Below are positions 1 through 3,703 of a DNA stretch of 3,703 bases, piece after piece. Source of the DNA: Escherichia phage P1; the sequence record X15639.1; one strand, written 5' to 3'. Position 1 is the stretch's first letter; each line of letters begins with the position of its first letter. A program made the position numbers and the translations under genes. Under the pieces are notes generated by a model. The model was not told the DNA's origin, searched no databases, and saw only the letters and a list, made by a program, of their open reading frames with translations.

Positions 1-9
1 AATAAATTT
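1..9 (+). promoter_or_regulatory. Partial C1-type operator (Op51-like), truncated by the window edge
   Basis: The window opens with AATAAATTT, which equals the 3' nine bases of the 17-bp asymmetric P1 C1 operator consensus ATTGCTCTAATAAATTT (from memory). Its position upstream of the immI promoter fits, but a 9-mer AT-rich match could be chance. Confidence 0.3.
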
Positions 10-47
10 GTATTTTTAAGTCGCGAATGCTATCTTTTCGCATCATA

Positions 48-76
48 TTGACCTTTTAATCGTTCAGGCTTATAGT
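48..76 (+). promoter_or_regulatory. Sigma70-like promoter, candidate immI promoter driving c4-icd-ant
   Basis: TTGACC at 48-53 (5/6 to TTGACA), exact 17-bp spacer, TATAGT at 71-76 (5/6 to TATAAT), with an AT-rich stretch upstream. Predicted start near 83, ahead of the a1/b1 sites and c4. Confidence 0.45.
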
Positions 77-108
77 TCCACCGTCGTAGCAAATTCTGCG
101 ACCGGTTT

Positions 109-128
109 TGACAGCCTGAATGTTAGTG
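109..128 (+). promoter_or_regulatory. Upstream antisense target sites (a1/b1-like) for the c4 RNA
   Basis: TTGACAG at 109-115 and GTTAGTG at 122-128 are exact complements of CTGTCAA (246-252) and CACTAAC (233-239) in the c4 candidate. The same two motifs recur in the same order at 276-311. Confidence 0.45.
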
Positions 129-198
129 CGGACAACCGCAGATTTCCGATATTGCGGTATTTTTGTGTCCGTAAACCGCGTTACGCCCGAATTATGGT

Positions 199-270
199 GG
201 GGCGTGATGGGGAGGCTTCGGCCTGCTGGTTTCACTAACGCCAGTCTGTCAACCCTGTCACGTCCTGCCA
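199..270 (+). ncRNA. c4: c4-like antisense RNA (immI repressor RNA) with a tRNA-like acceptor end; boundaries approximate
   Basis: GGGGCGT at 199-205 can pair with ACGTCCT at 260-266 (7 bp including G-U pairs), followed by a single base and CCA at 268-270, resembling a tRNA acceptor stem, consistent with the RNase P processing reported for P1/P7 C4. Internal hairpins: AGGC-TTCG-GCCT at 213-224, and a stem 226-229/241-244 whose loop carries b' CACTAAC (233-239). a' CTGTCAA (246-252) follows. b' with flanks (228-240) is complementary over about 12-13 bp to 304-316, covering the icd Shine-Dalgarno. Confidence 0.5.
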
Positions 271-275
271 CCTGT

Positions 276-316
276 TTGACAGCGGGTAGCAGGTTGTTAA
301 ACCTGTTAGTGAGGCC
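276..316 (+). promoter_or_regulatory. Downstream antisense target sites (a2/b2-like) overlapping the icd ribosome-binding site
   Basis: TTGACAG at 276-282 (a2) and GTTAGTGAGGCC at 305-316 (b2). b2 contains the GAGG Shine-Dalgarno (311-314) located 8 nt before the ATG at 323, so c4 pairing would occlude ribosome binding. Confidence 0.5.
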
Positions 317-322
317 GTAACT

Positions 323-565
323 ATGGTTAATGCCAATCCTTGCACACGCCCAGAATTCATCTGGCGTTTCTATTCCTGTAAAAAACACCACTATCACTTC
401 GTTATCGCAGCAACTGAAGACGAAGCACGCTCTCAATTGCCTGATGGCCCTGCATTTTTACTGCCCGTTTTTCTACTAACTCGCGCAATTCACTTAGTTA
501 CTGGAACCTCCCCTTCTCTGCCGACGTTCAGGGGGGTTTATGAAAAAACCTCTCGTCACCCGTAA
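323..565 (+). CDS. icd: Icd-like small protein (80 aa), likely translationally coupled to ant
   Basis: ATG at 323 preceded by GAGG at 8-nt spacing. The ORF ends at 565, overlapping the ant start (540) by 26 nt in a different frame. Position between c4 and ant matches P1 immI order. No recognisable domain by eye; assignment is positional. Confidence 0.5.
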   Translation: MVNANPCTRPEFIWRFYSCKKHHYHFVIAATEDEARSQLPDGPAFLLPVFLLTRAIHLVTGTSPSLPTFRGVYEKTSRHP

Positions 566-1508
566 TGAAATAGCCGAAGCGATCGCTTTGCATACTGCCT
601 GTATGCCGACACGGGAGATCCCCGGCGCAATTGCTAACTATTTCATGATAACCAGGCGTTTTTATACCCGAACAGATAAGGCTGTGATCAACAGGCTACT
701 GATAGCCGAGATCAGGGATTATTTGATTGAACAAGGACGTCTACGTTACGCAACAGTGGCAGCAGAAATAAGAAAGGAGGCACATAGAATGACCGGTAAT
801 AATTTGAATGTTGAAAAAACAGCACCTGTTACGTCAGCTACGCCAGCACCAGCCGTGAATATCATCCCCAACACCGGAGACACAATCGACAGCCAAACAT
901 TGTTGAAGATGGTCAATGAGGCACGCAAGTTATGTGGAGAACCAGAGGTTAGAAACAATAAATTCATCGAAAAAATACTCGATGAACTTGAAGGTGAATT
1001 TTACACAAAAAGTGCAAAATCCCATGGCACAAGGGCTGGGCGCTCTTTTGAGGTCATCACCATGACCTACAAACAAGCCCTGCGAGTCGCCGCGCGCGAG
1101 TCAAAAGCGGTCCGCCGTTCGCTGATCGACAAACTGGAAGAATTGCAGCAGGCAAACTCCCCTGCCCCATCGATCCCCCAAACATTACCAGAAGCTCTAC
1201 GCCTGGCTGCCGAGTTGGCAGAACAGAAAATGCAGCTGGAACAACAGCTGGTGGCCGCAGCCCCTAAAGTAGATTTTGCCGACCGGGTATCAGTGGCTAA
1301 TGGAATCCTGATCGGGAACTTTGCAAAGGTCGTTGGACTTAAGCAAAACGCCCTTTTCTCATGGTTGCGCCAGAACGGCATTCTCATGGCTTTTGGTGCG
1401 CGCAAAAACGTACCGCGCCAACAGTACATCAACGCCGGGTATTTCACGGTGAAAGAAGTGGTGCTGGATGATGAAAATGGCTACCAGATACGGCTGACGC
1501 CCAATTAA
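540..1508 (+). CDS. ant: Antirepressor Ant1 (322 aa): N-terminal extension, Rha/AntA-like domain, ANT/KilAC C-terminal domain; C-terminus looks truncated by a frameshift
   Basis: ATG at 540 preceded by a G-run (531-536). Central region (around residues 115-200) resembles Rha/AntA-type phage regulatory domains. The C-terminal 111 aa (DNA 1173-1505) align at roughly 65% identity with the C-terminus of the downstream KilA-like protein. Pro/Ala/Thr-rich linkers separate the modules. Confidence 0.85.
   Translation: MKKPLVTRNEIAEAIALHTACMPTREIPGAIANYFMITRRFYTRTDKAVINRLLIAEIRDYLIEQGRLRYATVAAEIRKEAHRMTGNNLNVEKTAPVTSATPAPAVNIIPNTGDTIDSQTLLKMVNEARKLCGEPEVRNNKFIEKILDELEGEFYTKSAKSHGTRAGRSFEVITMTYKQALRVAARESKAVRRSLIDKLEELQQANSPAPSIPQTLPEALRLAAELAEQKMQLEQQLVAAAPKVDFADRVSVANGILIGNFAKVVGLKQNALFSWLRQNGILMAFGARKNVPRQQYINAGYFTVKEVVLDDENGYQIRLTPN
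789..1508 (+). CDS. ant: Ant2, in-frame internal initiation product of ant (239 aa as encoded)
   Basis: Perfect AAGGAGG at 774-780, 8 nt upstream of an in-frame ATG at 789. The product length (about 263 aa if the C-terminal frameshift is repaired) is close to the 266-aa KilA paralog. P1 ant is known to give nested Ant1/Ant2 products. Confidence 0.5.
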   Translation: MTGNNLNVEKTAPVTSATPAPAVNIIPNTGDTIDSQTLLKMVNEARKLCGEPEVRNNKFIEKILDELEGEFYTKSAKSHGTRAGRSFEVITMTYKQALRVAARESKAVRRSLIDKLEELQQANSPAPSIPQTLPEALRLAAELAEQKMQLEQQLVAAAPKVDFADRVSVANGILIGNFAKVVGLKQNALFSWLRQNGILMAFGARKNVPRQQYINAGYFTVKEVVLDDENGYQIRLTPN

Positions 1509-1594
1509 CGGGTAAAGGCCAGCAGTGGTTAACTCGCAAGCTACTTGATGCTGGTTTGTTAAAACCAGTAGCAATAGGTTAACAAAAGAAAAAA

Positions 1595-1620
1595 ACCTGC
1601 CAGCAAACTGGCAGGTTTCT
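1595..1620 (+). terminator. Rho-independent terminator downstream of ant
   Basis: Perfect 9-bp stem ACCTGCCAG (1595-1603) / CTGGCAGGT (1608-1616) with loop CAAA, followed by TTTCT. An A-run precedes the stem. Confidence 0.6.
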
Positions 1621-1660
1621 GAGCAGATCGTCCAACCCGATCTGGATCGGGTCAGAAAAA

Positions 1661-1677
1661 TTTGCTCTAATAAATTT
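1661..1677 (+). promoter_or_regulatory. C1 repressor operator-like site (Op53-like) upstream of kilA-repL
   Basis: TTTGCTCTAATAAATTT matches the C1 operator consensus ATTGCTCTAATAAATTT at 16 of 17 positions (consensus from memory), 70 bp upstream of the kilA ATG. TTGCTC within it could serve as the -35 of an overlapping promoter, but no convincing -10 was found. Confidence 0.55.
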
Positions 1678-1695
1678 CGTTTTCTAAGTGCAAAG

Positions 1696-1719
1696 AATCA
1701 CCATTTCGAGCTGGTGATT
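1696..1719. promoter_or_regulatory. Perfect 8-bp inverted repeat with 8-bp spacer in the kilA leader
   Basis: AATCACCA (1696-1703) and TGGTGATT (1712-1719), located between the Op53-like site and the kilA Shine-Dalgarno. Could be a protein-binding palindrome or a leader RNA hairpin. Confidence 0.3.
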
Positions 1720-1746
1720 GAAGGTTGATGCAAATTTGGAGAAAAA

Positions 1747-2547
1747 ATGCAACAAACATTCAATGCGGATATGAATATATCAAACCTTCATCAAAATGTC
1801 GATCCTTCAACCACTCTGCCCGTTATTTGTGGTGTTGAAATTACGACCGACCGCGCTGGCCGTTACAACCTTAATGCTCTACACAGAGCGAGCGGACTCG
1901 GTGCCCATAAAGCGCCAGCTCAATGGCTAAGAACGCTGTCAGCTAAACAGCTCATCGAAGAGCTTGAAAAAGAAACTATGCAGAATTGCATAGTTTCGTT
2001 CGAAGGCCGTGGCGGCGGCACTTTTGCCCATGAATTGCTCGCTGTGGAGTACGCAGGCTGGATTTCTCCCGCGTTTCGGCTGAAGGTAAACCAGACATTT
2101 ATCGACTATCGAACCGGAAGATTACAACCTGCTATTCCGCAGAGTCTCCCTGAAGCTCTCCGTTTGGCTGCCGACCTGGCAGAGCAAAAGCAACGGCTGG
2201 AGCAAAAAATGCTTATGGATGCACCTAAAGTCGAATTCGCTGAACGCGTTGCTACCGCCAGCGGGGTTCTAATCGGCAACTATGCCAAAGTGCTCGGCCT
2301 GGGCCAAAACTATCTCTTCACCTGGTTGCGTGATAACGGAATTCTGATCGCAACCGGTGAACGCAGGAACGTCCCCAAACAAGAATACATATCTCGTGGG
2401 TATTTCACCCTTAAAGAAACCGTGATCGATACAAGCAATGGAAGCAGGATTTCTTTCACGACTCGTATAACCGGCAAAGGTCAGCAGTGGCTGATGAAGC
2501 GATTGCTTGATGCTGGTGTGCTGGTACCTGTCGCGGCAACGCGCTAA
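1747..2547 (+). CDS. kilA: KilA-like protein (266 aa): KilA-N DNA-binding domain plus KilA-C/ANT C-terminal domain
   Basis: GGAG at 1738-1741, 5 nt before the ATG. Residues around 25-125 carry KilA-N hallmarks (YNLNALHRASG, PAQWLR, GRGGGTFAHELLAVEYAGWISPAFRLKV). The C-terminal 137 aa (DNA 2134-2544) is paralogous to the Ant C-terminus. Architecture matches phage P1 KilA. Confidence 0.88.
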   Translation: MQQTFNADMNISNLHQNVDPSTTLPVICGVEITTDRAGRYNLNALHRASGLGAHKAPAQWLRTLSAKQLIEELEKETMQNCIVSFEGRGGGTFAHELLAVEYAGWISPAFRLKVNQTFIDYRTGRLQPAIPQSLPEALRLAADLAEQKQRLEQKMLMDAPKVEFAERVATASGVLIGNYAKVLGLGQNYLFTWLRDNGILIATGERRNVPKQEYISRGYFTLKETVIDTSNGSRISFTTRITGKGQQWLMKRLLDAGVLVPVAATR

Positions 2548-2576
2548 CAGACGTAGTAAGAACCACCAGCATTGTA

Positions 2577-3422
2577 ATGCTGGCTAAAGTCACTTTCCTG
2601 AGCTGTATAACGATGAGCGATTTTACTTTTTCTGGCTATGAATTGGCCTGCTTTGTAACACACTCCGGTCTATCCCGTAGCGCCGGGCATATCCTGTCGC
2701 AATGTGCAAATCTCGCGGCAACAACCAGTGAATACTTCATTCACAAGCCTCACCGCCTGATCGCGGCAGAAACTGGTTATAGCCAATCAACCGTCGTTCG
2801 TGCATTCCGTGAAGCTGTAAACAAAGGAATTCTGTCTGTAGAGATTGTTATCGGCGATCACCGTGAACGTCGCGCTAACCTGTACCGGTTTACACCATCC
2901 TTTTTGGCCTTCGCACAACAAGCCAAAAATGCGCTGATAGAAAGCAAATTAAAGATCTCTTCAGCGGCAACCAAGGTTAAAGCTGTTCTCGCTAAGACAT
3001 TGGCTTTATTTAATTTTTTATCCACACCCCCATGTCAAAATGATACCCCCTCCCCCTGTCAGGATGACGTGGCAATAAAGAATAAGAAGTCACAAGTTAA
3101 AAAAACAAAAAGATCAGTTTCCGGCGGTGCCGGAACAACCAGCCTCAAAAAATTGACTTCATGGATCGCTAAGGCAAAAGCAAAGGCTGACAATCTGCGG
3201 TTATCCAAAAAACGCACTCAAAAACATGAGTTCAAGCAGAAAGTAGAGGCGGCTGCGCGGAAATATGCTTACCTGAAGAACAAGCGTTCGCCTGATATTG
3301 GCGGGATATCAAACTTCGATAACCTACCGCATTGCATGACGGTAAACGAAGCTCTTAATGCGGTTTTAGCCAAAAATAAAGATAACGAACAATGGGGTAT
3401 ACCGGCAGGATTCAGAGGGTAA
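2577..3422 (+). CDS. repL: RepL-like lytic replication protein (281 aa); alternative start at 2613 (269 aa)
   Basis: Long ORF directly after kilA, as in the P1 kilA-repL operon. Winged-helix-like segment (AAETGYSQSTVVRAFREAVNKGIL) and a Lys-rich basic C-terminal tail. No clear Shine-Dalgarno before either candidate ATG. Assignment rests on context and size, not on recognised sequence motifs. Confidence 0.7.
   Translation: MLAKVTFLSCITMSDFTFSGYELACFVTHSGLSRSAGHILSQCANLAATTSEYFIHKPHRLIAAETGYSQSTVVRAFREAVNKGILSVEIVIGDHRERRANLYRFTPSFLAFAQQAKNALIESKLKISSAATKVKAVLAKTLALFNFLSTPPCQNDTPSPCQDDVAIKNKKSQVKKTKRSVSGGAGTTSLKKLTSWIAKAKAKADNLRLSKKRTQKHEFKQKVEAAARKYAYLKNKRSPDIGGISNFDNLPHCMTVNEALNAVLAKNKDNEQWGIPAGFRG
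3001..3070. other. Candidate origin (oriL-like) inside repL: AT-rich tract, perfect DnaA box, imperfect direct repeats
   Basis: AT-rich stretch at 3004-3020. TTATCCACA at 3018-3026 is a perfect DnaA-box 9-mer. Imperfect direct repeats CCCCCATGTCAAAATGAT (3027-3044) and CCCCCTGTCAGGATGAC (3052-3068). The P1 lytic origin is reported to lie within repL (from memory). Confidence 0.35.
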
Positions 3423-3424
3423 TG

Positions 3425-3441
3425 AATTGCTCTAATTATAA
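3425..3441 (+). promoter_or_regulatory. Weak C1 operator-like site just after the repL stop
   Basis: ATTGCTCTAATTATAAC: the first 11 bases match the consensus left part ATTGCTCTAAT exactly, and the right part diverges (about 12 of 17 overall). Confidence 0.25.
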
Positions 3442-3464
3442 CCATGCATACTTTCAACACCTCT

Positions 3465-3509
3465 AGTTTGCCATGAGGCAAACTCATAGGTGTCCTGGTA
3501 AGAGGACAC
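3465..3509 (+). other. Two tandem perfect stem-loops downstream of repL, possible terminator or RNA processing structure
   Basis: AGTTTGCC (3465-3472) / GGCAAACT (3477-3484) with loop ATGA; GTGTCCT (3490-3496) / AGGACAC (3503-3509) with loop GGTAAG. No U-tract follows, so not a canonical intrinsic terminator. Confidence 0.3.
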
Positions 3510-3703
3510 TGTTGCCAAAACTGGACGCCCCATTATTGCAATTAATAAACAACTAACGGACAATTCTACCTAACAATAAGTGGAGTTAACATGTTGAACC
3601 GAAGAACATTTAATGTATTCTGCGATGAATCCTGTCACCTACTAAATAATTATATAATAAGGTCATGGTATTAAATACGCTTTAATATTCCGGTCTGACT
3701 CTT

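Follow-up and report, generated by a model that had tools for sequence, protein, structure and literature searches.

We analysed the stretch of 3,703 nucleotides held in sequence record X15639.1 (the window, always taken at its full length), which carries the immI operon (the antisense RNA c4, the cell-division inhibitor gene icd and the antirepressor gene ant) followed by a lytic replicon (kilA and repL). Judged by its sequence, the window is DNA of phage P1 itself (Punavirus P1), corresponding to about 48148-51850 of the reference genome, and no evidence contradicts this assignment. We consider it highly probable that the window holds the entire immI operon, the lytic replicon and the first 113 bases of rlfA of P1, and that the three places where it departs from the P1 reference are errors of the deposit.

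Assignment of the window to phage P1

An earlier examination of the letters, made before any database search (the sequence-only reading), had assigned the window to a P1-like phage or phage-plasmid, leaving the choice among P1, P7 and a diverged relative to an alignment against the P1 and P7 genomes. The placement proved right, and the alignment, now run, resolves P1, neither P7 nor a diverged relative. When the whole window was compared by megablast with 50,697 phage records, positions 1-3672 were found to be 99.8% identical to four P1 genome records (span 48148-51819 in NC_005856), whereas P7 reached 95.8% and other P1-like phages 95.5-97.6%; the best non-P1 matches were a plasmid record (98.7%) and a complete Escherichia coli genome (98.5%). 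The sister deposits X15638, X17512 and M34382 were also among the megablast matches, and X15639 was not. A global alignment to the P1 reference contains only two differences over positions 1-3647, both a single missing C (after 447 and after 1499), followed by about 20 differences in 3648-3703. With the two Cs restored, positions 1-3638 are base-for-base equal to NC_005856, and kilA and repL are identical to P1 as written. Apart from these departures, the immI operon and lytic replicon of P1 (NC_005856/AF234172, and the old deposits X15639, X17512 and X15638) are the same in sequence as the window. Deposit X17512 has a G at window position 1055, where the window and the P1 reference have C, which is probably another discrepancy of an old deposit. 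The genes flanking the region in the P1 reference are simABC upstream and rlfA/rlfB downstream.

Feature positions were obtained by mapping the curated annotation of the P1 record to the window through the alignment. The genes and RNA elements on which the comparison turns are:

70-129, plus strand: leader with the C4 targets a1 (108-114, TTGACAG) and b1 (122-129, GTTAGTGC); Rfam and P1 annotation
196-272, plus strand: c4 antisense RNA, 77 nt; misc_RNA c4 of the P1 record, Rfam and fold
276-312, plus strand: downstream C4 targets a2 (276-282) and b2 (305-312, GTTAGTGA); P1 annotation and complementarity; context ACCTGTTAGTGAGGCCGTAACTATG
323-543, plus strand: icd, cell-division inhibitor; 73 amino acids in P1; the start at 323 is correct
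540-1582, plus strand: ant1, antirepressor; 347 amino acids in P1; PHROG 63 (anti-repressor Ant)
1747-2547, plus strand: kilA; 266 amino acids, with KilA-N and KilAC domains
2577-3422, plus strand: repL, lytic replication initiator, with oriL inside; 281 amino acids; rep_origin feature of the P1 record; PHROG 2418, 522 bits
3591-3703, plus strand: 5' end of rlfA (DUF3800 protein); P1 annotation; garbled from 3648

The six recognition elements of the C4 system separate P1 from P7 beyond overall identity. The predicted fold of c4 exposes b' (232-239, UCACUAAC) in the loop of a hairpin and leaves a' (246-252, CUGUCAA) unpaired; a1 and a2 (both TTGACAG) complement a' at 7/7 positions, and b' (TCACTAAC) is complemented by b2 at 8/8 positions and by b1 at 7/8. 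P7 (NC_050152, 50861-54536) has its gene order and three C1 operators in common with the window, but a three-way alignment reveals that all six elements (a1, b1, b', a', a2 and b2) are in the P1 form in the window and that P7 differs at each of them. The changes are compensatory: TTGACAG in a1/a2 of P1 is TTAGCAG in P7 and GTTAGTG in b1/b2 is GATTGTG, while in the RNA b' changes from TCACTAAC to TCACAATC and a' from CTGTCAA to CTGCTAA. Heteroimmunity between P1 and P7 is known to rest on these differences of the a/b elements (Citron and Schuster 1990, cited in PMC8198154). Since the window equals the P1 form at all six elements, it has the immI specificity of P1. The two phages are most diverged in immI, where the leader with c4 is 93.8% identical and ant 91.8%; kilA and repL are 98.9% and 98.6% identical, respectively.

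Two other origins have to be considered for the window. P1-like elements are very common, with matches in 782 PLSDB plasmids and in 757 of 5426 complete E. coli genomes, and P7 shares the gene order, so that P7 or a diverged P1-like phage-plasmid of Enterobacteriaceae might be thought of as the source. However, the best non-P1 matches (98.7% and 98.5%, and 95.8% for P7) fall short of the 99.8% identity to P1, which becomes 100% over 1-3638 once the two Cs are restored; the a, b, a' and b' elements are of P1 type; and identity to P7 drops to its lowest values in ant and in the leader with c4. A source in P7 or a diverged relative is ruled out by identity and specificity elements, and we regard it as very improbable indeed. 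The chance that the window is a piece of a P1-derived cloning vector carrying the lytic replicon (of the PAC, pCYPAC or pAd10sacBII type) is smaller still, although several vectors containing the repL region are listed in the P1 record. The vector segments listed there begin at 50195 or later, inside kilA, and are without immI, whereas in the window the c4-icd-ant operon is complete and kilA intact, both in native order, with no vector sequence at either end and a tail that aligns with rlfA. No vector record matching the window from end to end, 1-2047 included, turned up in the collections searched, to which vector records do not belong. A vector origin was rejected on the presence of immI and full-length kilA.

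Departures from the P1 reference

Two of the three departures are the loss of one C from a CCCC run, after position 447 in icd and after position 1499 in ant, and each shifts the reading frame. The loss in icd changes the frame after Icd residue 43, inside the core (residues 12-51) by which Icd binds FtsZ (PMC11897509). As written, icd is an open reading frame (ORF) at 323-565 encoding 80 instead of 73 amino acids, in the wrong frame from residue 44, and it overlaps ant by 26 nt. In P1 the two genes share a stop/start overlap, ATGA (540-543), which appears in the window only after restoration of the C present in 82/82 relatives, and the coupling to ant through ATGA is thereby lost from the written sequence. 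The NCBIfam model phage_ICD_like gives 52.6 bits on the P1 Icd protein. An icd-like ORF overlapping ant had been named in the sequence-only reading; the gene is real, and so is an overlap, but the long overlap arises because a single C is missing, and the native one is the 4-nt ATGA. In ant1, because a C is missing after 1499, the frame stops early, at 1508 instead of the true end at 1582, which shortens Ant1 from 347 to 322 amino acids and removes the end of the KilAC domain, a part conserved in KilA. The Pfam domain ANT/KilAC (PF03374, cut-off 25.3) accordingly scores 85.1 bits on the written Ant and 106.5 bits on the P1 protein. Over their C-terminal 205 residues Ant1 and KilA are paralogues, with 52% identity (E 4e-68); their final approximately 25 residues also align closely, and it is these that the truncated Ant of the window lacks.

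The third departure is the tail. Aligned to P1 rlfA, positions 3648-3703 contain about 20 differences in 56 bases with a few insertions or deletions, and many of the differences are a G in P1 that is an A in the window. The rlfA frame meets a stop after 27 codons in the window, whereas P1 reads through. The tail had zero exact matches, and a sensitive search with 3640-3703 returned weak matches only (E 0.5), including, for P1 and P7, the colinear rlfA/rapA site. As the tail still aligns with rlfA, a junction at 3672 with foreign DNA was rejected.

Several observations indicate that the three departures most likely reflect errors in an early deposit of the Sanger era, not biology. The harm that the two omissions do to the FtsZ-binding core of Icd, to the ATGA overlap and to the KilAC domain of Ant, and the stop that the tail places in rlfA, point the same way. 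Among 82 related loci, the CCCC run was found at the icd site in 82 and at the ant site in 66, and CCC in none. In IMG/VR the 30-mer across the icd site had 79 exact matches with CCCC and 0 with CCC, and the departures were seen neither there nor in the collections of phages, plasmids and E. coli genomes. Both Cs are present in X17512, an independent P1 deposit. The P1 record itself carries a feature at 48148-51819, the same limits as the match of the window, with the note that it is '99 pct identical (5 gaps)' to PP1REPLG, GenBank X15639, and its note on ant1 states that the predicted product is 27 amino acids longer than in the previous prediction. The missing Cs are likely to be gel compression errors in homopolymer runs.

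It might instead be supposed that the window faithfully records a natural or laboratory-derived icd- ant- derivative of P1, in which the two Cs are truly absent and the 5' end of rlfA is mutated. Homopolymer runs are natural frameshift hot spots too, and ant-defective and immI mutants of P1 were widely used in laboratories. The P1vir phage has three substitutions in immI (PMC8198154), but P1vir itself was rejected as the source, since the window has zero substitutions relative to the reference in 1-3647 and so none of those three. Three independent lesions in 3.7 kb of otherwise identical sequence would be improbable, and none of them recurs in the related loci or in the collections searched. 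The tail differences are crowded into the last bases of the record, where read quality drops, and the ant1 note fits an earlier sequence in which the ant frame ended early. We therefore judge a mutant derivative to be very unlikely; if the lesions were real, they would amount to no more than mutant forms of an operon that is already well characterised. Two points nevertheless weaken the reading of the departures as errors of X15639, though not the assignment to P1. The G-to-A changes in the tail form an unusual, clustered pattern, and a misread gel is only our guess at its cause. The P1 record speaks of 5 gaps relative to X15639, while the alignment over 1-3672 needs 4 gap characters; an odd count is impossible, since sequences of the same length always give an even one. 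The steps of C4 processing, translational coupling, premature termination, binding of C1 by Ant and transcription-dependent firing of oriL are taken from the P1 literature.

Organization of immI and the lytic replicon

Apart from the genes and C4 elements given above, the following features were mapped or predicted in the window:

1-9, plus strand: 3' half of the C1 operator Op51 (Oc4); P1 record 48140-48156 equals window -7 to 9; AATAAATTT in the window, full P1 site AATGCTCTAATAAATTT
7-36, plus strand: promoter P2c4 (former P51a), C1-controlled; -35 at 7-13 and -10 at 31-36; P1 annotation
48-76, plus strand: promoter P1c4 (former P51b); P1 annotation; consensus scan TTGACC-17-TATAGT, 10/12
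789-1582, plus strand: ant2, from an in-frame internal start in ant1 with AAGGAGG upstream; P1 annotation; context AAATAAGAAAGGAGGCACATAGAATG
1591-1620, no strand assigned: strong 13-pair hairpin between ant and kilA, preceded by an A-run and followed by TTTCT; terminator scan, minus-strand match with T-run
1626-1648, no strand assigned: three GATC (Dam) sites (1626, 1639 and 1645) in the kilA regulatory region; P1 annotation
1643-1671, plus strand: promoter P53 (PkilA); P1 annotation
1661-1677, plus strand: C1 operator Op53/OrepL, over the -10 region of P53; TTTGCTCTAATAAATTT; P1 annotation
1774-1802, minus strand: antisense promoter P53as (PaskilA); P1 annotation; scan TCGACA-17-TATATT, extended TG; its RNA is antisense to the 5' end of kilA
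3018-3026, plus strand: perfect DnaA box TTATCCACA inside repL
3074-3116, no strand assigned: most A/T-rich 43-nt tract of repL, 79% A/T
3201-3209: second DnaA box, with 1 mismatch, inside repL
3426-3442, plus strand: C1 operator Op55 (Orlf), just 3' of the repL stop; ATTGCTCTAATTATAAC; P1 annotation

All the signals named in the sequence-only reading are located at, or within 1 base of, annotated P1 features. The operator-like site it saw at the left edge is real and belongs to Op51, but only a 9-nt fragment of it is present, the operator being cut by the edge of the window. The second site, at 1661-1677, is Op53 with exactly those coordinates; it matches the C1 operator consensus, which we take to be ATTGCTCTAATAAATTT, at 16/17 positions, where a chance expectation of 0.02 per window applies at 3 mismatches or fewer. 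The c4-type antisense RNA with duplicated targets is confirmed by two Rfam families, C4 (RF01695; 190-275, 68.8 bits, gathering score 45) and c4-a1b1 (RF03163; 70-122, 51.0 bits, gathering score 46.7), by the fold of the 77-nt RNA (-42 kcal/mol, z = -4.55) and by the complementary a1/b1 and a2/b2. The nested in-frame ant starts were likewise correctly recognized: ATG 540 and ATG 789 are in frame, 83 codons apart, and correspond to the ant1 and ant2 starts annotated in P1. Finally, the gene with KilA-N and KilA-C domains followed by a gene of repL size turned out to be kilA, with both domains (KilA-N, PF04383, 75.8 bits with a cut-off of 23.8; ANT/KilAC, PF03374, 112.2 bits with a cut-off of 25.3), and a repL identical to that of P1. 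Op55, which had not been listed, and the start of rlfA are also present in the window.

Combined with what has been published on P1, these features allow the working of the region to be proposed. The two tandem promoters, of which P1c4 (P51b) is constitutive and the other is overlapped by a C1 operator, would transcribe the leader, c4, icd and ant into a single transcript. C1 represses one of these two promoters (PMC8198154, PMC9948254), and the C4 RNA is released from the transcript by cleavage (Citron and Schuster 1990, cited in PMC8198154). Pairing of C4 with a2/b2 would then block translation of icd, and b2 overlaps a purine-rich, Shine-Dalgarno-like stretch (GTGAGG) 5' of the icd start. 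The cutting that yields C4 is done by RNase P, and untranslated operon RNA is reportedly terminated prematurely, as Biere, Citron and Schuster are said to have found in 1992. Because translation of ant is coupled to that of icd and untranslated RNA is terminated early, no antirepressor would be made in the lysogen. Once produced, Ant1 and Ant2 act as a complex that inactivates C1 by binding to it, which lifts repression genome-wide (PMC8198154), while Icd would arrest division of the host by binding FtsZ. C1 bound to Op53 would shut P53, and with C1 gone P53 would transcribe kilA and repL; the antisense promoter in kilA and the three Dam sites may modulate P53. Theta replication then starts at oriL, which lies inside repL, driven by RepL and by transcription through repL; a 43-bp A/T-rich tract in oriL is required for it (PMC9948254). 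Riedel et al. 1993 is among the primary papers cited in PMC8198154/PMC9948254.

Part of the immI region has a counterpart in phage D6. Window positions 63-434, which include the leader with a1/b1, c4 and the first half of icd, are 88.9% identical to it (NC_050154), and in D6 no similarity to ant, kilA or repL was detected at megablast sensitivity. This sharing suggests that the antisense-RNA/icd cassette may move as a module between phage-plasmid lineages. A match to the Rfam family isrK, a small RNA of the Salmonella Gifsy-1 prophage, was observed around a1/b1 (83-164) with 35.1 bits, below the gathering score of 50, and hints that the Gifsy-1 isrK locus could be related to a c4-type leader. 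An ORF of 126 amino acids on the minus strand (56-436) and other long antisense ORFs overlap c4/icd and the annotated genes, and were taken as spurious. The hairpin at 1591-1620, for which the P1 record has no annotation, is terminator-like and, from its flanking A-run and TTTCT, could work in both directions.

In the lytic replicon, kilA and repL are on the same strand, 29 nt apart, and are co-transcribed; kilA is lethal on expression and is not needed for replication (PMC9948254). The tract at 3074-3116 is a candidate for the functionally required 'AT2' element of oriL, with the identity of its boundaries being inferred, and the two DnaA boxes and the A/T tract would fit the oriL elements described in PMC9948254. 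Short direct and inverted repeat families in repL were at chance level, and nothing iteron-like was found among the repeats. Searches with RepL against Pfam, NCBIfam and PDB sequences gave no match; in RefSeq the homologues of RepL are named 'Replication protein repL', 'helix-turn-helix domain-containing protein' or 'MarR family transcriptional regulator'. Downstream of repL, Op55 keeps the left 11 bases of the operator consensus and differs from it at 5 of the right 6. Two adjacent hairpins were observed in 3468-3511 (TTTGCC-ATGA-GGCAAA and GTGTCCT-GGTAAG-AGGACAC), between Op55 and the predicted rlfA promoter, and neither has a T-run.

Distribution and significance

The module is widespread. 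Among the 782 matching PLSDB plasmids, 715 are from Escherichia and 53 from Salmonella, and in the 757 matching complete E. coli genomes it is found nearly always on plasmids. Only 25 of the 1181 matching places in E. coli are chromosomal (e.g., NZ_CM148631 at 4462163 and NZ_CP178203 at 3522177), and these may represent integrated P1-like elements or assembly artefacts.

Taken at face value, the deposit gives a wrong C-terminus of Icd (80 vs 73 amino acids), a short Ant1 (322 vs 347) and a false stop in rlfA, and automated pipelines that ingest the old record would propagate such errors. The region also illustrates how well a reading from sequence alone recovers a known architecture. With regard to replication, the mechanism of RepL and oriL is an already-known gap: RepL is structurally uncharacterised and the exact origin is still under mapping (PMC9948254). 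For the rest, the window represents already-known biology and adds nothing new to one of the best-studied regulatory regions of a temperate phage, and the spread of the module fits the known abundance of P1-like phage-plasmids.

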